The notes under the pieces were generated by a model. The model was given only the letters and a program-made list of their open reading frames with translations. It searched no databases and was not told the origin of the DNA. DNA of 32,000 bases from Nanobdellota archaeon (GTDB lineage: Archaea; Nanobdellota; Nanobdellia; Nanobdellales; Nanobdellaceae). Numbering within the stretch: the stretch's first letter is position 1; each line of letters starts with the position of its first letter. The position numbers and the translations under genes were made by a program. Below are positions 1,287-23,369 of the stretch, one piece after another. The DNA lies in the NCBI GenBank assembly GCA_042850255.1, contig AP031373.1:720001-752000 (forward strand). The letters are read 5' to 3'.

Positions 1287-1775
1287 ATGATAGATGATGA
1301 TCATGATTTCATAAAAGAATTTGAAGACTATTGGATGTCTTTAATAAAGAAAGTTACTAAAAATTATGTAATAATTGAAGATGAGACCCAAAATGTAAGA
1401 ACAAAAATAAAAGTAAATGGTAAAGCAGATTTATTTATGTTATTTTGGAGATCTTTTATAGATGGTTTCTCTAGAAATAATTTAGATATTATAACAGAAT
1501 TTGCTGCACCTTATCTAATAAAAGTATTAGGTATGAAAAGAGAATGGAAATTTAAAGTAGGTATAGGATTTGGAGATTTATTTTTAATAGATTCAGATTT
1601 ATTCTTTTATTTAATAATAATAGGAGAAAATCTATATAACTCTGGATATTTTGATTATAGAAAATTAAAAGAAATAAAAGATAAATTATCTGAAGATCCT
1701 AAAAAAGATTTTTATTGTTGTGGCATGATAGATAAAGTAAGAAAAAATAATTTAATGACATTTATTTTATATTGA
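1287..1775 (+). CDS. hypothetical protein
   Basis: 162-aa ORF with an ATG start and no recognisable motif. It converges on and overlaps the 3' end of the 1767-2522 gene by 9 nt. Confidence 0.5.
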   Translation: MIDDDHDFIKEFEDYWMSLIKKVTKNYVIIEDETQNVRTKIKVNGKADLFMLFWRSFIDGFSRNNLDIITEFAAPYLIKVLGMKREWKFKVGIGFGDLFLIDSDLFFYLIIIGENLYNSGYFDYRKLKEIKDKLSEDPKKDFYCCGMIDKVRKNNLMTFILY

Positions 1776-2522
1776 ATTTATATAATTAAGGACCTCTTTA
1801 TATAAACTTTTTATATATTCATTTTCAGGTAAATAATCTGTTAGTTCATAAATTATATATTTTATATTATCTAAACTATTAGCCTTTATTAATTTATGTA
1901 CTATTTCCCTTTGTTTTTCTTTATCAATATTTAATAATATATTGCCTAAAAGACTACCAATAAAATATTCTTTACTTCCATAACTAATTATATCATTCAT
2001 TTTTTCGATTTCTTCTTTTTTAAATACTTTAGATAAAAATATAATTGTTAAAGCTTCTGTAGTAAATTCTTCTAATTTTTTATATTTATTTACTTTATCA
2101 AAAACCTTCTTGTATATTGGAATATATGGAATTATCCATAATAATAAATAATAATTATAGAAAAGAGGAAGATAAAAAACAGGAATTATTGAGGAAATAG
2201 TTAATGTATTAATAATAAAAGATTTTAATCTATAATCTTTATTATTTTCGAATCTTGTATAATGAGTTAATTCATGAAATAAAACATGATATAATTTATA
2301 TTTATCCTCAAATTCATTATAATTTTTTAACAAAGATTTGTCTATTTCTATAATATTAAATCCGAAAAAATATCTATAAGAACCATAAGTATTTTCTTTA
2401 TTAAGTATATCTGTTACTATTATAGTAGGTTTTCTTAATTTTTTATCCAACCCAAATGATCGAATAGAATTATAAAAATCATTTACTATATTATCCAATA
2501 TTTCTTTATAATACTCTTTCAT
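1767..2522 (-). CDS. HExxH zincin-like protein with hydrophobic insert (M-family copy 1, intact)
   Basis: HELTH is encoded at 2262-2276 on the minus strand. A downstream EEFTTEALTIIFL block could supply a third-ligand Glu. The hydrophobic stretch FIINTLTISSIIPVFYLPLFYNYYLLLWIIPYIPIY lies between the two motifs. The N-terminal SFGLDKKLRKPTIIV is colinear with SLGLDKKLKGYSPIFII of the 5626-6362 locus. Confidence 0.6.
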   Translation of the reverse strand: MKEYYKEILDNIVNDFYNSIRSFGLDKKLRKPTIIVTDILNKENTYGSYRYFFGFNIIEIDKSLLKNYNEFEDKYKLYHVLFHELTHYTRFENNKDYRLKSFIINTLTISSIIPVFYLPLFYNYYLLLWIIPYIPIYKKVFDKVNKYKKLEEFTTEALTIIFLSKVFKKEEIEKMNDIISYGSKEYFIGSLLGNILLNIDKEKQREIVHKLIKANSLDNIKYIIYELTDYLPENEYIKSLYKEVLNYINSI

Positions 2523-2862: not shown

Positions 2863-3825
2863 TTATTTTTTATAATATTTTTCAAAAAAAGATAAGGCAT
2901 TATCAGATATACGATCTTCTGTTATTATTCTTTCTAATGAAAGAGGATAATAGCTAGGAGATATTACCTTTACTTCTATATTTCCATTTGATTCATTTAT
3001 TTCTTTTACTGTAACTGGTAAATATGTATAATCCTCATTCCCTCCTATAAGTATGTTAACAAATAATACATTATCATGATCTGCAGAAGGTCTATAGAAT
3101 AAATCTTCTCTTAAATCTTTAGATTTATACCCTTTATATTTTCTTAAACCATTTCTAGATAAAGAATATGCTTTCTCAGATTGTTCTATCTGTCCATTTA
3201 TATAATTTTCTTGTATATTTTCAAGTTTCTTATCTATATTATTTAATTCTGTAAATTTGCCATCTTGAGAAAATGATGTAGAAATTCTAACATAGATATT
3301 ATTAAATAATTCTATATTACTTACATCCTCTACATCATTGGATTTTTTTCTTATTTTTGGGGATGGATATAATTTGTCTTCTAAGAAAGATATAAAATCT
3401 GCAGGAGAATAAAAAATTTTACACTCATGAAAATTACATGCATAAGTATAAGGAACATATATAATAGCTCTTTCACGACCTTCATCTTTTATTAATTTAA
3501 GATGGACATAACCTTTAGCTAATAATTCAATAAATTCTTCATCTTTTATAATACCTTTTAATTTCTCTAAATAACTATGAACTTTAATACCATAATCTTC
3601 TAATGGTACTTCACATTTACTATCATCTACTGCTATTTGAAGTACAGATGTTTTATCATCTCTATATTCAGATAACATTATCTCTCTTCCAATATTATCC
3701 CTTCCAATTATTTCGTATCTCATACCACCTTTTCCAATTTTTTCATCTATCCTTTTCATTTTTGAAAATGGATTATCGAAATAATCTGTTATTTCTTCTT
3801 CTATTATCTCTTTTGCATCGTCCAT
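2863..3825 (-). CDS. hypothetical protein
   Basis: 320-aa ORF with normal, non-shadow amino-acid composition and no motif I can recognise. Confidence 0.6.
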   Translation of the reverse strand: MDDAKEIIEEEITDYFDNPFSKMKRIDEKIGKGGMRYEIIGRDNIGREIMLSEYRDDKTSVLQIAVDDSKCEVPLEDYGIKVHSYLEKLKGIIKDEEFIELLAKGYVHLKLIKDEGRERAIIYVPYTYACNFHECKIFYSPADFISFLEDKLYPSPKIRKKSNDVEDVSNIELFNNIYVRISTSFSQDGKFTELNNIDKKLENIQENYINGQIEQSEKAYSLSRNGLRKYKGYKSKDLREDLFYRPSADHDNVLFVNILIGGNEDYTYLPVTVKEINESNGNIEVKVISPSYYPLSLERIITEDRISDNALSFFEKYYKK

Positions 3826-4455: not shown

Positions 4456-4974
4456 TTAGTATTTGTAATCCTTTAATCTTTGCTTAGGATGATCTGATAT
4501 TCTTCCTAATGTATGATAATCTAGAATTCTTTCTCCTTCTCCATCAACAAATAATTTATAAATTCCATTTTCCTCTATTATTTTACCTAATCTATATTCC
4601 TTAAGCTTTTCACTATAAAATAAAACATATGCTTCTCCTCCAGATATTAAAGATTTTATGTATTGAGACTTATCACTATTTGGAGCATATAACATAGATT
4701 CTATATCTTTTCTCTTAAGTAAATAACCAGATTTTAATTTTCCTGTATTTCTATCAGCAAATCCTATCTTAAGCGCTGCTCTTCTTCCCATAAAAATTTT
4801 TCCAGCTTTTGTTATATATTCAAATTGATAAGTATTTGGCATATATGGAATTTCTTCAATTTTTACACTTGGATTTGTTATATCTGTTCCCCATAAATAT
4901 TGTTCTATTTCTTTAATAGCTTGATCTATGGATTTATATCCGCTAGTTTTATAGTCTTCTCCGAGCCTTTTCAA
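4456..4974 (-). CDS. hypothetical protein; possible 5' extension to about 5059 through a frameshift
   Basis: 172-aa ORF starting at TTG. Immediately upstream in another frame (5059 down to about 4950) is MLFMMSYTLDTILVGRVISGGIDRQQTTVEKA. This comparatively GC-rich stretch meets the ORF at the T4/A4 run 4970-4973. Confidence 0.5.
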   Translation of the reverse strand: MKRLGEDYKTSGYKSIDQAIKEIEQYLWGTDITNPSVKIEEIPYMPNTYQFEYITKAGKIFMGRRAALKIGFADRNTGKLKSGYLLKRKDIESMLYAPNSDKSQYIKSLISGGEAYVLFYSEKLKEYRLGKIIEENGIYKLFVDGEGERILDYHTLGRISDHPKQRLKDYKY

Positions 4975-5625: not shown

Positions 5626-6362
5626 GTGGATGATAATCTCACTATTATACAAGAAATTCTTAATAAATATGATGACGCTAGAAAATCTTTAGGATTAGAT
5701 AAGAAACTAAAAGGATATAGTCCTATATTTATTATAAATGAAAATACAAAATATGCACATATGATCCTAAAAATAATATTATATTTGTAAATAAGGATAT
5801 ATTAAATGAAGAAAATAAGACAATTTCTTATTATTCAATTATTCACGAATTAATCCATCTAGAAAGAAAATTAAATAGAGATTGCGTAGAAGTAGATATT
5901 CAATGTGAAGATATAGATATTGAACAATGTGAAAATATAAAATATATAATAAAAAATACTGTTTATTCTTCTAACCCATTTAATAATATAACAGAAGAAA
6001 TTTCAACAACTGCAGCATCAATTATTTTCTTGTATAAAATATTTAGAAATTCTATAGACAATATTATAAAAGAATGGAATAAAGTAAATAGTATAAATGA
6101 GTTAAATAAATATGAAAATGATAAAGATTATGCACCATACTGGGCAGGTATTATAATTGGTTATTTAATTATTAAATCTGTAAAAGAAGATAAATTGGGA
6201 AAATTTGCATATAATTTAATAAAAGCTTGCGATATAAGAGACTTAGAAAATATTACATTGGATCTAGCGACAATATTTCCAGGTAAATATACAGATCTAT
6301 ACAACAAAGTAGTAGGATACCTTACTTCATTAGAGGAATCTCAAAAAGCATATAATAAGTAA
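5626..6362 (+). pseudogene. HExxH zincin-like protein, frameshifted (M-family copy 2)
   Basis: The GTG at 5626 in frame 1 gives (M)DDNLTIIQEILNKYDDARKSLGLDKKLKGYSPIFIINENTKYAH and stops at 5794-5796. Frame 3 continues from about 5757 with DPKNNIIFVNKDILNEENKTISYYSIIHELIHLERK (HELIH at 5844-5858) and runs into the tracked ORF ending at 6362. Both halves are colinear with 1767-2522. The EEFTTEA block reads EEISTTAA here, so the putative ligand Glu is replaced. Confidence 0.6.
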
Positions 6363-7110: not shown

Positions 7111-7962
7111 ATGAATAATAATACATATTCAGATATTATAAAATATAATTTATTAGAAAATTTAAAAAAATATTTAATATTAAATAAGAAAGATTTATCT
7201 ATAGTAGAAAAAACACTCAATAATTATTTTCCATATGAAGAAATAGAGTATAATTTAAATCCTTATAATCAAGATAAAATAATAAAAGTAATTGCTGCTA
7301 TTAATACTAGTATTGTACCATATATATCTACGTTAAAAATCTTTAAAATAGAAATTGATAATAAATTAAAAGAAAGATATAATTATTTAAATTTAGAAGA
7401 TTTATTACAAATATATAGAAGTGCTTTAATAGGAAATATATCACTATTATCTGCAATGAAAGCTTTAATTAACTATTTTGATAATGAAGAAAAGAATATA
7501 GTTGCAGCTAGTGGATTAAATTTTATTATTTATAAAGAAAGATCATTTTTTAAATATTCTAAGTACTTGATATCGCAAATATTCCAAGATAACAAAATAA
7601 AAGTAGATTATCAAAATTTAGATAGATTATTAATAGGTTTAGTTTACGGTCTTTTAGTAAGTAGCATTCTTGATAAATTATTAAAAGATCCTAATTTAGA
7701 TAAATATTTAGAAAAATTATCTAAAATTCATAAAAAAATTGGAAAAATAACCAATAATGAAAAAGCGATTAAGAAAATAATAAAAATTATTTATAAAGAT
7801 CTAACAATATATTTAGATAAAGAAGAAAATAGGGAGTTTCTTAATAGTTTAATAAATTTAAAAAATATTATTAAAGATCTAAAAATAAGTTTTGATAATT
7901 ATCCAAATGTTATAGTTTATATAAATTTGATAGAAAATTTAGAATATAAATTAAAAAAGTAA
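7111..7962 (+). CDS. helical-family protein (P-family copy 1)
   Basis: 283 aa. It carries the N-terminal NLLENLKK motif and the central block NLEDLLQIYRSALIGNISLLSAMKALINYFDNEE, shared with 9922-10794, 10986-11930, 15932-16984 and the disrupted 8891-9879. Confidence 0.65.
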   Translation: MNNNTYSDIIKYNLLENLKKYLILNKKDLSIVEKTLNNYFPYEEIEYNLNPYNQDKIIKVIAAINTSIVPYISTLKIFKIEIDNKLKERYNYLNLEDLLQIYRSALIGNISLLSAMKALINYFDNEEKNIVAASGLNFIIYKERSFFKYSKYLISQIFQDNKIKVDYQNLDRLLIGLVYGLLVSSILDKLLKDPNLDKYLEKLSKIHKKIGKITNNEKAIKKIIKIIYKDLTIYLDKEENREFLNSLINLKNIIKDLKISFDNYPNVIVYINLIENLEYKLKK

Positions 7963-8831: not shown

Positions 8832-8890
8832 TATATTTTAAATTTTTCGTTTAAATACTTATCTTTAAATATAACTCTTATTCAATAAAT

Positions 8891-9879
8891 ATAGATAATT
8901 ATATACCAATTGAAAGATTTAAGAAATACCTAAGTAAAAATCTAAAGAAAAATCTACCAATAAAAGATATAGATGACATTTATTTATCATTAGACTACAA
9001 TAAAATAGTAGAATATTTAAAAAAATCAGACATAGAAAAGTTGTTTGAATATGTAGAACATAAAATAAATATAGAACTTGTTAAAAAAGATAAATATGAA
9101 AAATCTAATGTAGATATAATAGGAAAATATATAGAAGTTGTTTATTCTATACTATATCTAATATATCAACTTTAGAAACAATTTTAGAATTTTATAATGA
9201 AAACTATAAAGAGGAATATTATAAAGTTTTAATAGAAAGTCTTAAAATACTGGAGAATAATCTAGAAAATAATATAGAATCTATAAAATATGGATATCAA
9301 GAGATAACAAATATAAAGATAGAATATTCAAATATTTTAGAATATTTAGATAATTTTTCTAAATTAATATTTAGAATTATTATTGCATTAATAAATACTG
9401 GCACACTTTATGGTATATTAAAGATATTTGAAAAAGAAGATCAAAATATAGAAGGTATATCAAATTCTATAAAAGAGAAATATAAAAAAATATATACTAT
9501 AAAAGAAGAAATAAATAAAAATATAGTAGAATTTTTTGATAATAAGGATAAAAAAATAAGAAAAATCTATATAAATATACTAGAAGAAATTGAAGGAAAA
9601 TCAAAAGATAATTTAAAATATATAAATCAATATATAAGAGATATAATAGAAGATTTATTAAATGAGCATTTTAAAACTAATAAATTTCATTATTTTAAAT
9701 TTAAAGAATATTCGAATAATAAAATAAGCGAATTATATAATGAATTATTGGATATCTTAGAAAAAGATTTGGATAATGATAATAGTCAAAAGTTATTAGA
9801 ATTATTATTATATAAGGAAATACATGAATCTTATATAAACCTAATAGATTATATTAAAAGTAATGTAAAAACCAGATAG
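8891..9879 (+). pseudogene. helical-family protein, disrupted (P-family copy 2)
   Basis: ATA GAT AAT at 8891 aligns with the ATG GAC AAT start of copy 3, and there is no canonical start between the upstream stop at 8852-8854 and 8891. Frame 2 reads IDNYIPIERFKKYLSKNLKKNL...NVDIIGKYIEVVYSILYLIYQL and stops at 9173-9175. Frame 1 resumes at about 9163 with ISTLETILEFYNENYKEEYY...TLYGILK... and runs to TAG at 9877-9879. The shift lies in the atatat tract 9161-9166. Confidence 0.6.
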
Positions 9880-9921: not shown

Positions 9922-10794
9922 ATGGACAATAAAGACGAATATGATACTATAGAGGATTTTAAACTTTATCTGAAGGATAATCTATTAAAGCTTTTTCGAG
10001 AAAATGAAGAGATAGTACTAAAATCTATCAATTCAGTAGATAACAATTTGTTAATTAAATATATATCTGGTAAAAAATTACTAAATATAATGCAGAATAT
10101 TGTAATTAATAACTTATATCCATATTTTTTAGAAAATCTTAACTTAAATATATCTTATAACAATAAAAATTTAGAAGAAATATTAAGCTATTATAAAAAA
10201 GGTATAATATTATCAGCTCTATTAATTTCTACATTAGATGCTACTTTTAGATATTATAACAAAAAAATATCAGAAAAAGAATATTATTCAAAAATAATGT
10301 TCGGACTAGATTATATAAAATCTTTATGTATAACTATGGGAAATATATTAATAGAAAATTACATGAAATTTAAAAGATATCTACTAGAAAATTATATATC
10401 GTCTAATAATATTAGATATGATGTAATAGAATATAGCACACTTTTATACGAAATATCAAAGCATACTATAGAGTATCTGATAGTTTACAGTACGGTATAT
10501 AATATGATTATAAAAGATAGTAAAGAAGATGTTGATGAATTCTTAAATAATATAACAGAAAAATATAACATATCACCAGAAAATGCTATAAAAGAAATAT
10601 ATAACAATATAATAGGATACTTAAATTCAGAAATATACAATATAAATGGTTTTGATAATAAAAATATATTTATTAAGTTTTTAAACCATATTAAAAGAGA
10701 TATTAAAGATATATATAGTGAATTATCAGATAATGAGATTGATCTAAAAGAAAAATTATTATTTTACTATAACTTTATTAGCGATATATTATAA
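9922..10794 (+). CDS. helical-family protein (P-family copy 3)
   Basis: 290 aa. The central block is NLEEILSYYKKGIILSALLISTLDATFRYYNKKISEKEYY. The N-terminal IVLKSINSVDNNLL matches IVSSINTSELENIL of 15932-16984. Confidence 0.65.
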   Translation: MDNKDEYDTIEDFKLYLKDNLLKLFRENEEIVLKSINSVDNNLLIKYISGKKLLNIMQNIVINNLYPYFLENLNLNISYNNKNLEEILSYYKKGIILSALLISTLDATFRYYNKKISEKEYYSKIMFGLDYIKSLCITMGNILIENYMKFKRYLLENYISSNNIRYDVIEYSTLLYEISKHTIEYLIVYSTVYNMIIKDSKEDVDEFLNNITEKYNISPENAIKEIYNNIIGYLNSEIYNINGFDNKNIFIKFLNHIKRDIKDIYSELSDNEIDLKEKLLFYYNFISDIL

Positions 10795-10893: not shown

Positions 10894-10989
10894 ATGAATA
10901 GCGATCATAAACTATTTTGTCTGGAAAATATAAAAAAAGATAAATTGAAATATGCTAAGATATTTAACCAAACTATTGATTTATTATGA
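10894..10989 (+). CDS. 31-codon ORF, probably the detached N-terminus of P-family copy 4
   Basis: MNSDHKLFCLENIKKDKLKYAKIFNQTIDLL carries the family N-terminal LEN[LI]KK motif. Its TGA (10987-10989) overlaps the ATG (10986-10988) of the next ORF. The TATA-like tttttaaat at 10863-10871 precedes this ATG rather than the one at 10986. Confidence 0.4.
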   Translation: MNSDHKLFCLENIKKDKLKYAKIFNQTIDLL

Positions 10990-11930
10990 ATATTAAAGAG
11001 ATAGGTTATAAATATTTATCAATATTCAAAAAAATAATAAACTATAAATATGAAAAGGAAGGTAAAGAATTTATTAACAATTATATTACAAAAATAATTA
11101 ACAAATTTATAATAATAGAGAGATATGAACTAGAAGAAGCTATAAAAAGAATAAATACCAACTATTTAAAATTAGGAGAAATTCTTCTCAATTACAAAGA
11201 TCTTTTAGATGAGAATTATCAATTCCATATATCTGATATAAATAATTTTGTTAGAGATATAGCTTTTAGTATAGCTGGATATTTATCTAACAAAATAGAA
11301 AATAAAGGCACATATATCAATAGAAGAGATTATAATCATTTAGACTATATAATTTCATCTTATAAGAAAAGTTTAATAGAATCATTGACTCTTATATCTA
11401 CAATATCTGCATTTTATTCTTATTATAATGAAAAAATTGAGGATAGAAATATAAAGAAAGAAATATTTGAATTACTATCTATATCATTTTCTATATTATC
11501 ATACAATCTGACTATGAAAGATATTGTTAGTAATATTTATTCTCATTTAAATAAAATATCTTTAGACGATGAAAATGATCTAATTATAACGTCAGAATCT
11601 TTTATAAAAGATTTAATTTTTATATCTACACTATATGGTACATTAAAAAATAGATATCAAATATTAAAAATATACGACACAATAAACGAAAATAAAATAG
11701 AAGAAATGTTAGAAACAATACATAAAAATTTAGGAGAATATTTTAATGAAAATAAACACTTATTATTAACAATCGAAATGGTTAAAGAAAAATGTTTTAA
11801 ATATAATAAACCAATAATTAGAGATTTTATTAATTTAATAACAAGATCAGAAAAATATATAAATGAAAATACATTAAAATATATAAGAAGTCTATTAGAT
11901 AAAAATATAAATCGATATAATATTAATTAA
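10986..11930 (+). CDS. helical-family protein (P-family copy 4)
   Basis: 314 aa. The central block is HLDYIISSYKKSLIESLTLISTISAFYSYYNEKIEDRNI. The distal ISTLYGTLKN matches NTGTLYGILK of copy 2. Confidence 0.65.
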   Translation: MNIKEIGYKYLSIFKKIINYKYEKEGKEFINNYITKIINKFIIIERYELEEAIKRINTNYLKLGEILLNYKDLLDENYQFHISDINNFVRDIAFSIAGYLSNKIENKGTYINRRDYNHLDYIISSYKKSLIESLTLISTISAFYSYYNEKIEDRNIKKEIFELLSISFSILSYNLTMKDIVSNIYSHLNKISLDDENDLIITSESFIKDLIFISTLYGTLKNRYQILKIYDTINENKIEEMLETIHKNLGEYFNENKHLLLTIEMVKEKCFKYNKPIIRDFINLITRSEKYINENTLKYIRSLLDKNINRYNIN

Positions 11931-12036: not shown

Positions 12037-12134
12037 CCGGGCGTAGCTCAGCCTTGGTAGAGCGGCCGGCTGTAGTGGATAAAATCCTGGCCGCAGAGAC
12101 CGGCAGGTCGTGGGTTCAAATCCCACCGCCCGGA
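12037..12134 (+). tRNA. tRNA-Tyr(GUA): tRNA-Tyr (anticodon GUA) with a 23-nt intron at 12076-12098
   Basis: - Acceptor stem: CCGGGCG (12037-12043) pairs with CGCCCGG (12127-12133), with discriminator A at 12134.
- D arm: GCTC/GAGC.
- Anticodon stem and loop: GCCGG (12065-12069) pairs with CCGGC (12100-12104), and the loop reads CT-GTA-G.
- T arm: GTGGG-TTCAAAT-CCCAC, preceded by a 5-nt variable loop.
- Identity and 3' end: the C1:G72 pair is the archaeal/eukaryal tRNA-Tyr identity pair, and no CCA is encoded.
- Intron: it sits at the canonical 37/38 position. The bulge-helix-bulge consists of the 4-bp helix CUGU (12070-12073)/GCAG (12093-12096) flanked by the 3-nt bulges AGU (12074-12076) and AGA (12097-12099). 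Confidence 0.85.
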
Positions 12135-12164: not shown

Positions 12165-12707
12165 ATGGAACTTATTATTCTAGAGATCGAAGATATACAT
12201 AATAGAGAATTATTTGATTTTTGGAAAGAGTTCTTTAAAGGGCAAATTTAACAAACTTCAATGTTTTAGTTATATTATTTGGAATAGAAGATAAAAATGA
12301 AATAGAAAGATATAAAGAACTAATAAAAAATTATTTTAAAGATTTAGGTGCAAGCAATATAGAATTTTTAGATGATAAATATTATATAACAGAAGAAAAA
12401 TTTAAAGAATCAGATGTAGTTTATTTAGCCAATGGAGATACAAAAATACTATTAGAGAAATTATATAATAATCAGAAAACTCTGGAAGAATTAAAAAATT
12501 TGATGGAATTTTAATTGGAAATGGTGATGGAGCAATAGTATTATCAAAAAAGAGTACGAACATAAAGAAAAAATTATTAAATACAAAGGATTGGGAATTG
12601 TTAATACAAAAGTATTGATTTATGTTAAACCAGAAAGTATAGAGAAAGTTAATGATAATGATATAATATTATTTGTTATTGGAGATTATGTAGTAATAAA
12701 GAAATAA
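12165..12707 (+). pseudogene. multiply frameshifted gene remnant, possibly a peptidase S51 / class-I glutamine amidotransferase-like fold
   Basis: Four successive frames give protein-like sequence:
- MELIILEIEDIHNRELFDFWKEFFKGQI
- NFNVLVILFGIEDKNEIERYKELIKNYFKDLGASNIEFLDD...SDVVYLANGDTKILLEKL
- FDGILIGNGDGAIVLSK
- YKGLGIVNTKVLIYVKPE...
The layout is reminiscent of PepE-like proteins, but the expected nucleophile Ser context is not conserved. The functional call is weak. Confidence 0.3.
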
Positions 12708-12738: not shown

Positions 12739-13338
12739 TTATTTTGGTAATCCTTTTTCCATATAATTTTTAATTTTATCTTTTAATCCTTCTAAAATTA
12801 TTATTCCATATTCTTCTTTTAATAATTTTTTATTAGCAATAATTTCGGAATCGGTAGTTAGAAAATAATCAATATCAAAATATGATGCAATTGTTAAATG
12901 TATAGCATCTTCCATATGTATACCATAATACGGAAATGAAAGAAATATATTTTCTATCATTTCTTTCCATTCTTCTTTTTCAAAATCTGCAAGTAAATAT
13001 AAATTTAATTCTCTAAAAATATTATCAATTTTATAAGTAATTTCTTCACTAATTTTCATAATAATATCTTCTTTTATATCCTTATAAAAGGCATGAGGAT
13101 ATCTCCATTTATGTATAATTTTCTCTATTGAATATCCTTTTTCTTTTATTAAACATTCAGCTATCCTATTTTTAAGTAATACGAAAATTATTTCATAAAT
13201 AACAAAATATGAAATTATATAAGAAATGTTATATTTAGACTTCAAACTTTTTAATAATTCTAAATAATCTTTATCCAAATAACAATCGACTAAAATATTA
13301 GAATCTAAGTAGATATATTTTTCTTTACTCTCATTCAC
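12739..13338 (-). CDS. PIN-domain protein (VapC-like putative toxin) with an internal insertion
   Basis: GTG start. IYLDSNILVD supplies the N-terminal acidic residue, EDAIHLTIASYF the third acidic motif and FLTTDSEI the C-terminal T.D motif. At 199 aa it is longer than minimal PIN domains. Confidence 0.7.
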   Translation of the reverse strand: MNESKEKYIYLDSNILVDCYLDKDYLELLKSLKSKYNISYIISYFVIYEIIFVLLKNRIAECLIKEKGYSIEKIIHKWRYPHAFYKDIKEDIIMKISEEITYKIDNIFRELNLYLLADFEKEEWKEMIENIFLSFPYYGIHMEDAIHLTIASYFDIDYFLTTDSEIIANKKLLKEEYGIIILEGLKDKIKNYMEKGLPK

Positions 13339-13705: not shown

Positions 13706-14035
13706 TTGGAAAGATTTTTTGAATCTGCAGAAGATAATTTTAAAAACAAAAGATATACTGCAGCAGGGGAAGACTATGCAAAACCTATTTTTCTAATGAT
13801 CGACGAATATTTAAATAATAAATATAATATTACTGTTAAAGATCATTCGGAAAGAAGATTATTTTTATTATCAAAACAAAAAGAAGACAAAATTTGTGAA
13901 GAATTATTAAATATCTATATTTCTGTTTATAATTTATATAGAGAAACTTATACTAGATCTTTATCATATGAAGAAGCAAATATATTAAGAGAATCTGCTT
14001 TAAAAGTAAAAGATATAATAGAAAATGCTAGATGA
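13706..14035 (+). CDS. HEPN-like domain protein
   Basis: 109 aa with a TTG start. The helical pattern is AEDNFKNKRYTAAGEDYAKPIFLMIDEYL...KDHSERRLFLL...YRETYTRS. It resembles archaeal HEPN domains that pair with minimal nucleotidyltransferases. It overlaps the downstream NTase ORF by 11 nt. I do not see a clean Rx4-6H motif. Confidence 0.55.
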   Translation: MERFFESAEDNFKNKRYTAAGEDYAKPIFLMIDEYLNNKYNITVKDHSERRLFLLSKQKEDKICEELLNIYISVYNLYRETYTRSLSYEEANILRESALKVKDIIENAR

Positions 14036-14612
14036 AATAATAGAAGATCTATCTAAATATTTAAATGAAAAAATTGAAGATATTATAATATTTGGATCTG
14101 TAATGAGAGGAAAAGAAAATCCAAATGATATAGATATAATAATTATATTCAAAGAATTCAATGATAAATTATATTTAGAATTAGGAAAAAATTATCATAT
14201 TATCCCACTTACCATAGATAGCTTATATAATATAAATACTATTTTAATTGAAGCTTTGGCAGAAGGATTTTCAGTAAAATATAGTAAACCTTTAAGAGAA
14301 ATTTTAGGTTTTAGGTCCTATAAAGAATTTGTTTTTAAAGAGATGAAATTTAAAGAAAAAAGTAAAAAAATATTATTTTATTATTTTTTAAATGGTAGAA
14401 AAGATAGAAACAAAAAAGGGATAATAGAAGAATTAAATGCTAAAATTATAAATAAAAATCCTTATATAATTAGAGTTCCCATAGATAAGTCGGAAATATT
14501 TAAGAAAAAAATAGAGATATTTTCTAAGTTAAATAATATAGAATTTGAAATTGAAGAAAGAACTATTATTATAGGAAGAGTAAATATAAACTTCTATAAA
14601 AATAATACTTAA
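14025..14612 (+). CDS. minimal nucleotidyltransferase (MNT) domain protein
   Basis: IIIFGSVMRGKENPNDIDIIIIF contains the G-S ... D-x-D signature of polymerase-beta-type minimal nucleotidyltransferases. A C-terminal extension of about 100 aa has unknown function. Confidence 0.8.
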   Translation: MLDEIIEDLSKYLNEKIEDIIIFGSVMRGKENPNDIDIIIIFKEFNDKLYLELGKNYHIIPLTIDSLYNINTILIEALAEGFSVKYSKPLREILGFRSYKEFVFKEMKFKEKSKKILFYYFLNGRKDRNKKGIIEELNAKIINKNPYIIRVPIDKSEIFKKKIEIFSKLNNIEFEIEERTIIIGRVNINFYKNNT

Positions 14613-15902: not shown

Positions 15903-15911
15903 TTTTTAAAT
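15903..15911 (+). promoter_or_regulatory. TATA-like box tttttaaat, 20 nt before the ATG at 15932
   Basis: It has the same sequence and spacing as the box upstream of 9922, and TTACCA lies at the same offset. See feature 9893-9901. Confidence 0.35.
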
Positions 15912-15931
15912 CTATTATATATTTACCACTT

Positions 15932-16984
15932 ATGGGTAATCCATATTTGGTAGATGAATATATAAACAACTTAGAAAATAATTTAAGAAAAATTATATAT
16001 GAAGGTAGTATAAATAAAATAGTATCATCGATAAATACTTCAGAATTAGAAAATATATTAGATACTAAAGATATAGATATAAAGGATATCGTAGCATATG
16101 TTTCTACTATCTTAATAAGTTCTTATGCTGAAAAAAATGGAAATAGGATAAATTTAGATAATAATATAACAAAAAGAATTTTAAATTATTATGAAAAAAA
16201 TTTAATTATATGCGGAATAGAATCTGCTGTAACAGAAACCACAATAAACTTTTTTAAAAATAAAAATAGATTAAAATATTCTGAAGAACCAAGATATATT
16301 CAAGAAATTAAGACCTTTCTTTTAGAATATTTACCTATAGATATGCAAAATACTTTTGGAGATATTAAAAAAATCATAAATAATATTAACAATAGCAATA
16401 ACAAAAGAAAATTAAGGTTTTATTATAAAAAACTAAATGAATTGGTTGATAATCTTTCTAAAAATTTAATATATTTGGGTATAATGGAAAGTTTATTTGG
16501 AGATGTAGACAAAATTAAGGACGAGTATAATAAAGTTAAAGAAGGATTGGAATCTATATTAGAACATTCTTACAAAGGAATAGCAAATTTTTTATCTTAT
16601 ACAATTTATGAATTTCCAACTGAACCATTACAAGTATTTTATTTTACAGAACCTGAAAAATTAAACAAATTAACTAGAGCGCTATATACAACCCTTAAAA
16701 ATAAGTATATAGTAGAAATGTCAAAAAACGAATTAGATAATAATAACATAATGAGAAGTTTTAAGATTTATTTAATAAAAAAGGCTATTAAATATTTAGT
16801 AGGAGAAGAACCAAAATATTTAAGAATTGAAAATAGAAGAGAAGTATATTCTCAATTTTACAATTTATTGATAGATACTAGAAATAATATATATGAATTA
16901 ATAGAAAATGACAAAATTAATCCAGAATATAGAACTACATTTGAAACTTTCATAGAAATAGTTAATAATGTGGAAAATATATGA
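15932..16984 (+). CDS. helical-family protein (P-family copy 5, dispersed)
   Basis: 350 aa. YINNLENNLRK, IVSSINTSELENIL and ITKRILNYYEKNLIICGIESAVTETTINFFKNKNRLKY are colinear with the motifs of the 7.1-11.9 kb array. Confidence 0.55.
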   Translation: MGNPYLVDEYINNLENNLRKIIYEGSINKIVSSINTSELENILDTKDIDIKDIVAYVSTILISSYAEKNGNRINLDNNITKRILNYYEKNLIICGIESAVTETTINFFKNKNRLKYSEEPRYIQEIKTFLLEYLPIDMQNTFGDIKKIINNINNSNNKRKLRFYYKKLNELVDNLSKNLIYLGIMESLFGDVDKIKDEYNKVKEGLESILEHSYKGIANFLSYTIYEFPTEPLQVFYFTEPEKLNKLTRALYTTLKNKYIVEMSKNELDNNNIMRSFKIYLIKKAIKYLVGEEPKYLRIENRREVYSQFYNLLIDTRNNIYELIENDKINPEYRTTFETFIEIVNNVENI

Positions 16985-17097
16985 ATAATAATCATTTATA
17001 ATTAACCTAGAAATTTGTTTAATTCAAACTTCAGAGATGTTTTTATTTTATTTTCAATATAGTAAGATTTATAAACTTTTAAATTTATTACTAATTA

Positions 17098-17871
17098 ATG
17101 GTAATAAGGGTACGCATAGATGGTATAGGACTATTTAATGGAAAAATTGGAGGTATTTATAAAACTATAGATAATAGAATAATTTCTTATAATTATAATA
17201 CTACTCTTGAAGAATTGATTGATAAAAGTGTAAGAGAAAGAAGAGAAATTTCATTTACAACTTATTGTTCAGACCAAAATTGTGATTTTTTAGATGAAAA
17301 TCAAAGAACAGAAAATGGAATATCAATTCAAGGTACTTATGTTACACCTAAAGAACCATATACAATCATCACGAAAGGAGAATCTACACAGGACATAATT
17401 GATGTATCTGAACCTCCAAGAGGTACAATAGTTGAAATATTAGCGCATACACATCCATTAAGAAGAGGTCCGGAAACTTATCATTCGGATCCTGACAAAG
17501 ATGTCCATACAATGTATTTCCTAAGAGATATAACAAAAGGTACGTTAACCTTATCATTTGTATTAGGAAGAGATGAAGGAAAAGCTATGTTACCTGTTGT
17601 AGAAATGGATGGCTATAGGTATTACATAGATAATAAAGTTCCTAGTATAAGAAGTTTCCAATTAGCTTTAATATATAACTGTATTCAAAAATTTTATGGA
17701 ACTAATTATAGAATAGGTTATATGGGATTCTATTCTCAAACATATGTTCCAGAACCTATCAATTGTAGACAAATATACTTTGAAGAAGTTCCTATATTTT
17801 ATATGTTTAGAGAACCATATGAAACTATAATAAAGAGAGATAAAAAATTACCACCAATAAAAAGGTTATAA
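17098..17871 (+). CDS. JAB/MPN-like (JAMM motif variant) protein
   Basis: IVEILAHTHPLRRGPETYHSDPD is encoded at about 17437-17496. It fits H-x-H-P ... S-x-x-D of JAMM metalloenzymes, but with 10 residues instead of the usual 7 between H-x-H and Ser. I cannot place the upstream catalytic Glu with confidence. By eye the ORF is more G+C-rich and less K/N/I-biased than its neighbours. Confidence 0.45.
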   Translation: MVIRVRIDGIGLFNGKIGGIYKTIDNRIISYNYNTTLEELIDKSVRERREISFTTYCSDQNCDFLDENQRTENGISIQGTYVTPKEPYTIITKGESTQDIIDVSEPPRGTIVEILAHTHPLRRGPETYHSDPDKDVHTMYFLRDITKGTLTLSFVLGRDEGKAMLPVVEMDGYRYYIDNKVPSIRSFQLALIYNCIQKFYGTNYRIGYMGFYSQTYVPEPINCRQIYFEEVPIFYMFREPYETIIKRDKKLPPIKRL

Positions 17872-18007
17872 AAAGATGAATTAATAGTATTAACATTAGA
17901 TAATCTTATTTAATAAATTTGAGAATAGTAAAAAATCGTAATATATTACTAATTAATTTTATTTATAAATATTAAATTTATAAGATGTTACTACTATATA
18001 GTAATAT

Positions 18008-19293
18008 ATGTATGATGATAAAGCAAAGGAAGTATTATTATCACTGGAAGAAATAGAAATATTAAATAGACTAGTAAATAAAATTAAAGATGATTTAGAA
18101 AGTAAAGGTTATAGAGATGATCAATATATTAAAGAACTTTTAGATATCACAAAAATGATAAATAAATCAGAAATAATTGAAGAATCTGGTATTAAAAAAG
18201 TAAGACTTTCGGTAGGAGAAATATACAAATTTTATAAATCTGCAAATAATCTTATAAGAAATTTAAAAAATGAGAAATATAAAAGTATAGATCAATTGTA
18301 TATTAATGGACTTGGAGCCAGAACTCAAATGATCTTCAAAATTATTTACAGATTTTTAGCTGAAGAAATAGCAAAACCTATTATTGATGATATAAATAAA
18401 AAATTTGGAATTTCTTATAATATAGAAATATTATTAGGAAAAAATGAAATAGAGAGAGAATTTGAAGAAGTTCCAGATATTTATAGTGATGAAGCTGCTA
18501 CGATATACAAACATAAAGGAAAATTATATATATTATTAGGAGAAACTTATAATCTGTTGTCTTCTTATACCTATACCAAAAAAAATGAAAAAATTAATTC
18601 AGAGGATTTAAGTGATTATCAACACAAAGAAGTCCCTTTACCATATACTCTTGTACATGAATATCTACATGAAATACTACAAGAAAAATTGCCAAAACTC
18701 ATAGTATATCTATAGGATTAGAAAAATTATTAGATGAAAATATAGATAATTTAGAATTTCCATATTGGGAAACATGGACTGAAGCATTTACTTATCTATC
18801 TTGGAGAAAAAAGTATGGTACAGATATACCAAAAAGTAAAATAGATCTTCTTAAAATACCAAATCTTTACTTATTGGATATAAAAGAAGTTAGTAATGAA
18901 ATTAAAGGTTATATGAAAGAAATAAAAAGAGAAGAAGATTTAAAGAAAAAAATTGAGGAAATAAAAGGAAAATTAGAAAGAGGAGAATCATATGATTTTG
19001 AAAAATATGGAGTAATAATTGAAAATGTAAAAGAAGCAGAACAAATTATAGAGAATATAGAAAAAGCAAAAGAAGAATACGAAGACAAAATAAGAGATTT
19101 AAGAATGTGGATATCATATGATAAAGCATATTTATTAGGATATATAATTGGAGAAGAATTATGGAACAAATATGGAGATAAATCAATCGATATATTAATA
19201 GAAAGAATAAGTAAATATAATGATATTGAAAATATATTGGATAAAGATGTGATAGAAAAGGTTAAAAATAAATTTAATAGTTATTTTTCATAA
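18008..19293 (+). pseudogene. HExxH zincin-like protein, frameshifted (M-family copy 3)
   Basis: Frame 2 reads ...PLPYTLVHEYLHEILQEKLPKLIVYL and stops at 18713-18715, with HEYLH at 18656-18670. Frame 1 is open from 18673 and reads ...THSISIGLEKLLDENIDNLEFPYWETWTEAFTYLSWRKKYG.... It runs into the tracked ORF 18874-19293. WTEAFTYLS aligns with TTEALTIIFLS of copy 1. The shift must lie between 18673 and 18713, which contains the A-runs 18684-18688 and 18693-18696. Confidence 0.55.
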
Positions 19294-19357: not shown

Positions 19358-19830
19358 ATGAAAATTCTTGTTATTCGTCATATTTCCTGGGATAAGAAGA
19401 ATGATGAAATAACAGAAGATGGAAAAAAACAAATTAAAGAAATTATTGAAAAAATAAGAAAAATAAATATAAATTTTAGAATAATCTATTCTTCTCCTTT
19501 AAAGAGAACATTATATACTGCAGAAAAAATTTCAGAAGAATTCTCTATACCAATAATATTAGAAAATTTATTGTCTCAAAGAAAAGAAAAAGAAGGAGAA
19601 TCATTTAAGAATGTTTATAACAGAACTAAAGAATTTTTAAAAAAATAAAAAAATAACTCTTTGATTACTAATGTTATTGTAGTAACTCATTATACAAATA
19701 TTGTTTGTTTTTATAGCATAATAAATAATAAAGATTTTAAAGAACTTTGGAAAAAGATATAGTTGACCCAAATACTGGTGATATTTTCTTATTTGATTTT
19801 ATAACTTCAAAAGATCAGTTTCATTATTGA
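19358..19830 (+). pseudogene. histidine phosphatase (phosphoglycerate mutase-like) family gene with an in-frame stop and a frameshift
   Basis: ILVIRHISW carries the RH motif, and SSPLKRTLYTAE matches the S.P..RA.QTA-like block. After TAA at 19646-19648 the same frame continues NNSLITNVIVVTHYTNIV, which contains the second catalytic His motif. A further shift near the A-run at about 19753 leads to DIVDPNTGDIFLFDF... and a stop at 19828-19830. Confidence 0.6.
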
Positions 19831-22513: not shown

Positions 22514-22951
22514 ATGGATGCAACAGGTATTTTGGATTTAAGAAAAAGTATATTAATTTATATTATTGCATTGATATTTATATTTTTAGATTTTTTATTA
22601 TTATTTGGATTAGGAAAATATTTGCCAATATTAGCAATTATAGGAATTTTTTCTATACCAATATATTTAATACTCTCTTTATTATCTATAATTTTTATAG
22701 TAAATGGATTTAATAAAATAGGAGATAGATTTGATAAAGCAAGATTAGGAAAAATAGGATCGTATTTAGCTCCAATTTTAGTAGGTTATATATTTCTAGG
22801 TCTATCGTTTTTATCTTTAGGAAATGCAATAAAAAATTATAAAGTAAAAATTGGAGGTATAATATTTATATTTCCACCCATTGGATTTATAGGAGCTATA
22901 TTAATATATTTAGGATTAACTGAAGTTGCGAGACAAATAAAATTAATATAA
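22514..22951 (+). CDS. small multi-pass membrane protein (tandem paralog A; DUF996-like by appearance)
   Basis: 145 aa with about 4 hydrophobic segments. NGFNKIGDRFDKARLGKIGSYLAPILVGYIFLG...KIGGIIFIFPPIGF is colinear with the next ORF. Confidence 0.65.
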   Translation: MDATGILDLRKSILIYIIALIFIFLDFLLLFGLGKYLPILAIIGIFSIPIYLILSLLSIIFIVNGFNKIGDRFDKARLGKIGSYLAPILVGYIFLGLSFLSLGNAIKNYKVKIGGIIFIFPPIGFIGAILIYLGLTEVARQIKLI

Positions 22952-22973: not shown

Positions 22974-23369
22974 ATGAATAAAGAAGGATTATTAGAATTA
23001 AGAATAGGATCTCTTATTTATACTTTTGGAACAATATTTATATATTTAGGAATCTTCTTTGGAATATTTAAAGGATTATTAATAATAATAGGAACATTAA
23101 TAAATATATTTGGAACAATTCATACTTGGAACGGATTTGATAAGATAATGAATGAATTTAAAGATTATGATATAGGAAAAATAGGATCTGTTTTAACATT
23201 AATTTTAGTAGGTTTTATAATATTGGGAATTGTTTATTATAGTTTAGGAAAAAAATTAAATAATGATAATATAAAAATTGGAGGTATTCTAACTATATTT
23301 TTCCCATTTATAGGACAATTAATCATACATTTAGAACTAAATAGTATTCTAAATAAATTAATAAATTAA
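22974..23369 (+). CDS. small multi-pass membrane protein (tandem paralog B)
   Basis: 131 aa. NGFDKIMNEFKDYDIGKIGSVLTLILVGFIILG...KIGGILTIFFPFIG aligns with paralog A. Confidence 0.65.
   Translation: MNKEGLLELRIGSLIYTFGTIFIYLGIFFGIFKGLLIIIGTLINIFGTIHTWNGFDKIMNEFKDYDIGKIGSVLTLILVGFIILGIVYYSLGKKLNNDNIKIGGILTIFFPFIGQLIIHLELNSILNKLIN

Follow-up and report, generated by a model that had tools for sequence, protein, structure and literature searches.

Lineage-restricted paralogues, a JAMM-motif orphan and gene decay in a 32-kb stretch of a Nanobdellota genome

The locus and the described systems closest to it

The described proteins that come closest to those considered here are the JAMM/MPN+ proteins, represented by AfJAMM (AF2198; structures 1OI0 and 1R5X; families PF01398 and PF14464), and the minimal zincins, among them the SprT-like (PF10263), MPTase-PolyVal (PF18818), Tox-MPTase3 (PF15639), DUF6782 and Peptidase_M78 families and possibly the DUF2268-like gluzincins. 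With regard to gene arrangement the nearest are the conflict systems that include a JAB protein (CBASS Cap2/Cap3, Bil and RadC/ArdC cargo), and with regard to gene decay the homopolymer-indel pseudogenes of AT-rich reduced symbionts. We compare with these a stretch of 32,000 nucleotides, called the window below, from the genome of the archaeon YN1 (assembly GCA_042850255.1, contig AP031373.1, forward-strand positions 720,001 to 752,000). Three genes of the same strand at 15932-19293 of the window had been proposed, from the sequence alone, to form a module: a gene of a helical paralogue family (the P family), the orphan YN1_8450 with a JAMM-like motif (the JAB-like gene), and a gene of a second family with the metalloprotease motif HExxH (the M family). 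All ORFs (open reading frames), motifs and frameshifts named in that proposal were confirmed. On balance, our results lean towards reading the region between 5.6 and 19.7 kb as a zone of lineage-restricted gene birth and decay and not as a demonstrated multi-gene system, in which case the locus would hold no more than the orphan genes that are usual for a DPANN genome of such deep divergence.

YN1, "Ca. Nanofervidus parviconus", lives in culture as an ectosymbiont on Sulfurisphaera ohwakuensis, and its genome has 889 protein-coding sequences and 23.4% GC; the closest cultured relative, Nanobdella aerobiophila, has a 16S identity of just 86.5% (PMC11420986), and orphan genes are therefore to be expected in YN1. 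The genome of 773,326 bp is a Unicycler assembly that combines Illumina with Nanopore reads, and exact protein matches assign the locus tags YN1_8230 to YN1_8500 to the window. Its base composition is uniform, with a G+C content of 17-29% per kilobase, and archaeal topoisomerase VI subunits and other housekeeping genes are encoded in it. The locus tags of the window genes are not mentioned in the text supplements of the YN1 paper (PMC11420986), and a synteny scan of GTDB representative genomes, a collection that does not include YN1, anchored on the Na+/H+ exchanger gave no match.

YN1_8450 resembles the JAMM/MPN+ proteins in having an upstream Glu, an H-x-H-P that ends a hydrophobic strand and an S-x-x-D, all in the JAMM order, and hhalign puts its motif residues on H67, H69, S77 and D80 of the AfJAMM metal site with a gap of three residues (P=0.08; the reference sequence was verified against PDB 1OI0/1R5X). 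It differs in the distance from H-x-H to S, which is 10 residues against the 7 of the canonical E...H-x-H-x(7)-S-x(2)-D, in giving no significant profile match, and in its size, double that of AfJAMM with additional regions at both termini; its fold has been modelled at a pLDDT of 31 only, and the window is without a ubiquitin-like, E1 or E2 gene. The M genes share with the minimal zincins an HExxH located on a helix after a short strand region, and two of them, M1 and M2, give sub-threshold matches to six zincin families, centred on the motif. However, all M scores are under the curated cut-offs and the third ligand is not confidently placed, M1 carries a hydrophobic insert, M3 is longer by about 150 residues at the N-terminus and has a coiled coil inserted, and two of the three copies are pseudogenes.

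As in the JAB conflict systems, a putative JAB-type protein is encoded beside another putative metalloprotease, but here no E1, E2, ubiquitin-like protein, cyclase or effector is present, no PADLOC model is matched, the genes are not operonic, and a mobile-element context was not found. The likeness to the homopolymer-indel pseudogenes of reduced symbionts includes single-base deletions, two of three frameshifts in A-runs, a peptidase gene broken at several points and a nonsense codon inside A-rich sequence, all within 14 kb. On the other hand, most of the well-known cases are insect endosymbiotic bacteria, whereas YN1 is an archaeal ectosymbiont, and the A-runs of YN1 (4-5 nt) are too short for the slippage rescue described for such bacteria.

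Spacing, order and decay along the locus

The three genes of the proposed module are separated by 113 bp (from the P gene at 15932, P15932, to YN1_8450) and 136 bp (from YN1_8450 to M3), in contrast to gaps of -11 to +29 bp between tight same-strand neighbours elsewhere in the window. A TATA-like box on the plus strand precedes each of them: tttttaaat at 15903-15911, about 21-29 nt upstream of the P15932 ATG, atttataaac at 17067-17076, about 22-31 nt upstream of the YN1_8450 ATG, and tttataa at 17977-17983, about 25-31 nt upstream of the M3 ATG. These are putative promoters, and such boxes 21-32 nt before each ATG fit leaderless archaeal mRNAs. Between P15932 and YN1_8450 there is also an oligo-T tract (tgtttttattttattttc, 17038-17055, plus strand), which is a candidate archaeal terminator. 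On L003, the metagenome contig that encodes the sole homologue of YN1_8450, the tract and the TATA-like box that follows it are both kept 5' of the gene and the remaining spacer has diverged. Each of the three genes may be transcribed from its own TATA box into a leaderless mRNA, and transcripts of P15932 would end at the oligo-T tract 5' of the JAB-like promoter.

The original prediction held that the two families are co-located three times; this reduces to two M genes that lie two genes away from a P gene. No P gene has an M gene as its direct neighbour, and two of the three M genes are two genes away, which, given five P positions, has a hypergeometric p of 0.16. M1 is without a P neighbour, as the partial open reading frame (ORF) 2-538, which had been called P-like, has shuffle z values of only -0.8 to 1.9 against the P copies. 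Only a 94-residue ORF separates M2 from P7111, as had been described, and this order (M2, 94-residue ORF, P7111) is opposite to that at the best locus (P15932, JAB-like gene, M3); the middle genes, an SSO10704-like ORF in one case and YN1_8450 in the other, are unrelated (z=-1.2). The HExxH partner at the best locus, M3, is itself inactivated. A recurring conflict or regulatory module of several genes, as formerly suggested, finds no support in view of p=0.16, the opposite order, gaps of 113 and 136 bp, two dead M genes and the lack of a PADLOC match (the P, JAB-like and M proteins match no defence family there at E<=1). Neither the spacing and order of the genes nor the statistics and the comparative data speak for a recurring three-gene system.

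Decay is the more prominent characteristic of this region. At least five disrupted genes are located between 5.6 and 19.7 kb, namely M2, the P copy at about 9 kb, a peptidase S51 gene, M3 and a histidine-phosphatase gene, and the rapid turnover that had been suspected is borne out by them; no disruption was found in the ORFs at 19.8-32 kb. One nucleotide has been deleted in each of M2, M3 and P9109 (the disrupted P copy), and two of these three frameshifts, those of M3 and P9109, are in A-runs. The peptidase S51 (dipeptidase E-like) pseudogene, at about 12240-12705 on the plus strand, is spread over three frames, and its merged fragments match PF03575 with E=3.6e-5. In the histidine-phosphatase gene (19358-19770, plus strand) an in-frame TAA at 19646-19648 lies in the A-rich tract aaaaaaataaaaaaataac; with read-through the Pfam score goes up to 64.5 bits, from 46, and a second Pfam-matching stretch is regained. 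TAA, TGA and TAG each terminate well-supported genes, which rules out an alternative genetic code, and as each of these stop codons is used normally, recoding does not account for the disruptions. Local duplication and single-base deletions are together regarded as the product of relaxed selection in a small AT-rich symbiont genome, and the adjacency of the three genes would be a by-product of that duplication and decay and not a sign of shared function.

The two paralogue families and the JAMM-motif orphan

The P and M families are real, lineage-restricted and turning over. That neither can be assigned to a named family was correctly anticipated, given that nothing above threshold was found in Pfam, NCBIfam, PHROGs, PADLOC or the PDB; likewise, profile searches with the P, M and JAB-like proteins led to no placement in a curated family (Pfam, NCBIfam, PADLOC, PDB sequences). 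The single exception in PHROGs is the match of M1 to phrog_9897, a viral family of which the function is not known (E=1.6e-5).

Of the M copies only M1 (YN1_8230; 1767-2522, minus strand) is intact; it has HELTH at residues 83-87 and, at residues ~100-137, a hydrophobic stretch, which has a Kyte-Doolittle maximum of 1.72 over 19 residues and is absent from M2 and M3. M2 (5626-6362, plus strand) is a frameshifted paralogue of M1 with HELIH; its one-nucleotide deletion, at ~5745-5752, is not within a homopolymer, and its C-terminal part is annotated as YN1_8290. M3 (18008-19293, plus strand) has HEYLH at residues 218-222 and is a pseudogene annotated as the hypothetical proteins YN1_8460 and YN1_8470. 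Both of the further copies that had been pointed out besides M3 are present, one intact and one frameshifted, and the earlier count of two disrupted copies in three agrees with the one-nucleotide deletion in each of M2 and M3. HExxH occurs exactly three times in the ORFs of the window, once in each M gene, against 0.116 occurrences expected (P=2.4e-4), and it is retained in all three.

As for the relationships between the copies, M1 and the reconstructed M2 are 30% identical over the full length, with z=17.6 against locally shuffled sequences, and these two are clearly homologous. The proposed three-copy family stands in this part, and the place of M3 in it is weakly supported: against a profile of M1 and M2 hhalign gives P=0.14, with only 37 residues ending in HExxH aligned, and shuffle tests of M3 against M1 and M2 give z=2.2 and 0.9. 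Two weak collinear blocks are common to M3 and M1/M2, the HExxH core and a C-terminal 'ISY..Y.(I/L)G' block. Because of these blocks and of the non-random HExxH in each M gene, M3 is taken as a probable distant member of the family, with a long extension at the N-terminus and an inserted coiled coil.

The ORFs 18008-18715 and 18874-19293 are two frames of one gene, in line with the frameshifted HExxH protein of the original prediction. The frames of M3 meet at an A5 run 'caagaaaaattgcc' at about 18683-18687 (plus strand), which is short of one A and shifts the frame by -1; adding one A gives …HEYLHEILQEK-IAKTHSISIGLEK…. In an independent Logan assembly of run DRR287338 the truncated M3 ORF of 235 amino acids recurs (contig L002), and the lesion, being reproduced there, is real in the DNA. 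Since the Logan assembly agrees and the published genome is an Illumina/Nanopore hybrid, the frameshift is not an assembly artefact, and sequencing error is ruled out on the same grounds. The product of M3 would be at most a truncated, inactive protein that stops 13 residues past HExxH.

The matches of M1 and M2 to zincin families of Pfam are below the cut-offs and are all aligned on HExxH (E 0.005-0.16). They are, for M1, Tox-MPTase3 (E=0.005), MPTase-PolyVal (E=0.009) and SprT-like (E=0.03), and, for M2, DUF6782 (E=0.034), Peptidase_M78 (E=0.14) and Peptidase_M91 (E=0.16); the C-terminal part of M2 also has a weak match to DUF2268, and M3 matches none of the curated zincin families. Because six sub-threshold families agree on HExxH and phrog_9897 is matched in addition, a zincin-like fold is likely for M1 and M2. 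Candidates for the third metal ligand are EEFTTEA in M1, EEISTTA in M2 and WTEAF or KEAEQ in M3, and their pairing varies with the alignment. M1 may function as a minimal zincin, a zinc metallopeptidase tethered to the membrane. Scans of IMG/VR and the JGI metagenomes with the M1+M2 alignment found nothing. A PDB profile search with M1+M2 returned only yeast ESA1, a MYST acetyltransferase (1mj9_A, E ~0.01), with the N-terminal residues 20-75 of M1/M2 aligned to residues 208-263 of ESA1; this match is judged spurious.

YN1_8450 (17098-17871, plus strand) encodes 257 amino acids with E50, H117-T-H119-P and, after 9 residues, S130-D-P-D133. The ORF and its JAMM-like H-x-H-P...S-x-x-D, which had been noticed earlier, are both present, the latter in the string HTHPLRRGPETYHSDPD. 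The relaxed form of the motif is expected by chance 0.018 times in the ORF set of the window, and about 0.3 times in a proteome of 889 proteins (extrapolated from 4e-4 per protein). A word-index search identified the sole homologue, P0002, which is 72% identical in pairwise alignment and is encoded on the 1007-bp ENA contig mentioned above (L003 of ERZ1669403, a metagenome contig of 1 kb). E50, H117, H119, S130 and D133 are all kept in P0002, which at 72% identity is weak evidence. The dN/dS between the two is 0.43 over 257 codons, and by this measure of the sequences YN1_8450 is therefore a real, constrained gene.

Beyond that homologue, an exhaustive HMMER search with the YN1_8450 profile against 1.84 billion representative proteins gave no credible relatives. 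Two borderline matches in it are giant repeat adhesins of which the scores are summed over 6 and 25 repeats, and they were rejected as spurious. Scans of GTDB genomes, JGI metagenomes, IMG/VR and phage records gave no match, JAB-clan models of Pfam and NCBIfam were not matched even by the excised core at E<=10, and phmmer against the PDB returned nothing relevant. The AlphaFold2 (AF2) model made from two sequences has a pLDDT of 31.3; in its low-confidence secondary structure residues 112-175 are all beta, with no helix after H-x-H, and Foldseek found no match to it in the PDB at E<1. Because hhalign gives P=0.08, the pLDDT is 31, Foldseek returns nothing and no profile matches, a JAB fold is proposed for YN1_8450 at the motif level only. 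The protein may be a metal-dependent hydrolase, possibly of the JAMM type.

Two further observations concern this gene. Positions 1-60 of L003 resemble the 3' end of P15932 (window 16940-16990; …GTTAATAAT.TG…), which hints that a P-like gene may precede the JAB-like gene in the L003 organism too, as far as so short a contig can be read. Moreover, YN1_8450 and the reconstructed M3 resemble each other over a short segment more than shuffled controls do (z=3.4, p=0.007; BLAST 37% over 40 amino acids, E=0.8), and this similarity is probably compositional in origin.

The P family is real but very divergent, with four intact copies and one frameshifted copy, all on the plus strand. The ORF at 15932-16984, P15932, is a member as had been predicted; it encodes a predicted all-alpha protein of 350 amino acids that is identical to the hypothetical protein YN1_8440 and has shuffle z values of 2.7-5.8 against the other copies. 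P7111 (YN1_8320, 7111-7962) was placed in the family by its ORF and the shuffle test, and P9922 (YN1_8360, 9922-10794) and P10986 (YN1_8370, 10986-11930) are members in tandem. The disrupted copy occupies 8890-9876: its N-terminal third is in a different frame upstream of the ORF 9109-9876, the frames are joined at an A4 run at ~9118-9122 from which one nucleotide is deleted, and ATG is absent from both parts, which accords with the one disrupted P copy counted earlier.

With PRSS-style local shuffling all ten pairs among 15932, 7111, 9922, 10986 and the 9109 ORF are above chance (z 2.3-6.9), whereas pairs of P copies with controls are mostly not above the shuffled sequences. BLASTP is significant only for 9922 against 10986 (E=3e-5), and a hidden Markov model built from these two did not retrieve the other copies from the window ORFs. 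The aligned P sequences have two helical motifs in common, 'Y+K.LI....LIST...A...YYN.K' and 'STLYG.L'. An AF2 model of P9922, made with five paralogues in the alignment, is all-alpha with 10 helices, but its pLDDT of 46 makes it unusable, and Foldseek against the PDB found nothing with E<1. No match above threshold was obtained in Pfam, NCBIfam, PHROGs, PADLOC or PDB sequences. This divergent family, predicted to be all-alpha, has thus been amplified locally, to five copies in 10 kb, of which three stand in tandem and one is dead.

Competing explanations and neighbouring genes

Several points weigh against reading the region as one of orphan-gene birth and decay. TATA-like strings are common in DNA of 21% GC, about half of the window genes having one, and because of this the promoter assignments are weak. 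Three orphan genes in a row on the same strand, two of them with metal-site motifs, are suggestive in themselves, and if all P and M copies of the 773-kb genome sit in these 19 kb, their clustering would be non-random and could reflect shared function. In addition, the zincin assignment is built from sub-threshold matches and a motif, and the searches with the P family covered only the five libraries named above. The most direct alternative is that the three genes form a real lineage-specific unit, in which an isopeptidase of the JAMM type and a zincin work with a helical P protein, an adaptor or immunity-like partner, in conflict, in regulation or in the manipulation of the host; M3 would have been lost recently in this strain. 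The consecutive position of the genes on one strand, the improbability of the JAMM-like motif in the window (0.018 expected), the clearly non-random HExxH, the constraint on the JAB-like gene (dN/dS 0.43) and the likeness of the L003 sequence 5' of that gene to the P15932 3' end are all in its favour. Nevertheless we consider such a unit unlikely, since the spacing is not operon-like and each gene has a TATA-like box of its own, both assemblies have a pseudogene for the zincin partner, M-P proximity is at p=0.16 with inconsistent order, PADLOC is not matched, a JAB fold is unsupported by profiles, hhalign and AF2, and the searches of GTDB, JGI and the 1.84 billion proteins yielded no further genome that might show the linkage, the sole relative being on a 1007-bp contig. 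For YN1_8450 taken separately, the chances seem evenly divided as to whether it is a JAMM/MPN protein at all, or whether its H-x-H...S-x-x-D is another metal site, cupin-like for example, or has no catalytic meaning. The blank result with JAB-clan Pfam and NCBIfam models even at E<=10 on the core, the spacing of 10 instead of 7, the hhalign P of 0.08, the all-beta residues 112-175 of the low-confidence model and the ~0.3 such motifs per proteome by chance all argue against a JAMM/MPN protein, and the HTHP...E of YN1_8450 may be a cupin-like site in a beta-barrel, similar to the germin motif. Yet E50...H117xH119...S130xxD133 and the beta-turn-beta pattern match AfJAMM element by element, every motif residue is kept in P0002 (which is weak at 72% identity), and the cupin families are without a match as well.

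The decay itself can also be questioned. Frameshifted M3 and P9109 might still be expressed if -1 ribosomal or transcriptional slippage at A_AAA restored the full length; both breaks are in A-runs, on which tRNA-Lys would remain fully paired after slipping by -1. Moreover, fucA1 of Saccharolobus solfataricus has a programmed -1 frameshift at A-AAA-AAT, and poly(A) slippage rescues genes in AT-rich endosymbionts. But the runs are only 4-5 A long and their phasing is not that of the canonical X_XXY_YYZ heptamer, the M2 break is outside a homopolymer, P9109 is without any ATG, and the nearby nonsense-interrupted and multiply broken genes fit plain decay, all of which leaves slippage with hardly any probability. 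Almost as improbable is an integrated virus or plasmid, of which the region would be a remnant with the P, JAB-like and M genes as cargo. Such an origin would be compatible with the match of M1 to the viral phrog_9897 (E=1.6e-5), the tRNA gene at 12037-12134, a PIN gene and a HEPN-like/nucleotidyltransferase pair nearby, and the many orphans and pseudogenes of the region; against it, the window contains no integrase, capsid or replication hallmark, no att-like repeats and no repeat of the tRNA 3' end, its base composition is uniform, housekeeping genes are interspersed, and neither tblastn nor pattern searches found a match in phage records or IMG/VR contigs. Finally, the P proteins, the JAMM-motif orphan and the zincin-like proteins may be imagined, though with very little probability, as a host-interaction or conflict toolkit specific to Nanobdellales. 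For example, proteases delivered via an attachment organelle that bridges to the Sulfurisphaera cytoplasm could act on Urm1/SAMP-type conjugates of the host, with P proteins as partners or immunity proteins, and rapid duplication and pseudogenisation would then indicate an arms race rather than neutral decay. The attachment-organelle components of YN1 are stated as not yet identified (PMC11420986).

If the module were true, an archaeal ectosymbiont of which the host-interaction proteins are still to be found would have a new system based on proteases. As it stands, under the reading of lineage-restricted birth and decay that we prefer, what is documented are two paralogue families of high divergence, one orphan that is under constraint and carries a metal-site motif, and a stretch unusually rich in pseudogenes in a cultured DPANN genome. 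In genomes of 21% GC, calls made from motifs need to be backed by genome-wide data and by experiments before they are taken for systems.

Other genes of the window deserve brief mention. The tRNA gene at 12037-12134 (plus strand) is 98 nt long and contains an intron; it was found with Rfam (57.4 bits), was missed by ARAGORN, and is located between the tandem P genes and the PIN-domain gene (12739-13338, minus strand). The PIN-domain gene is followed by an overlapping pair on the plus strand, a small HEPN-like ORF (13706-14035) and a Pol-beta/MNT nucleotidyltransferase gene (14025-14612), which looks like a toxin-antitoxin module, the HEPN call being made by eye with Pfam blank. Tandem paralogues at 22514-22951 and 22974-23369 (plus strand) encode small membrane proteins that are 40% identical (E=2e-22), and the first of them matches DUF973. 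YN1_8240 (2863-3825, minus strand) has a weak PADLOC match to the winged-helix model WH_III-A (E=1.1e-4), and its similarity to YN1_8260 (4456-4974, minus strand) is above chance (z=3.6-3.7), which suggests that the two form another small orphan family. The 94-residue ORF between M2 and P7111 (6762-7046, plus strand) bears the GenBank name 'uncharacterized protein SSO10704'; this name suggests a relative in Sulfolobales, to which the host of YN1 belongs, and a host-derived origin of this ORF is possible.

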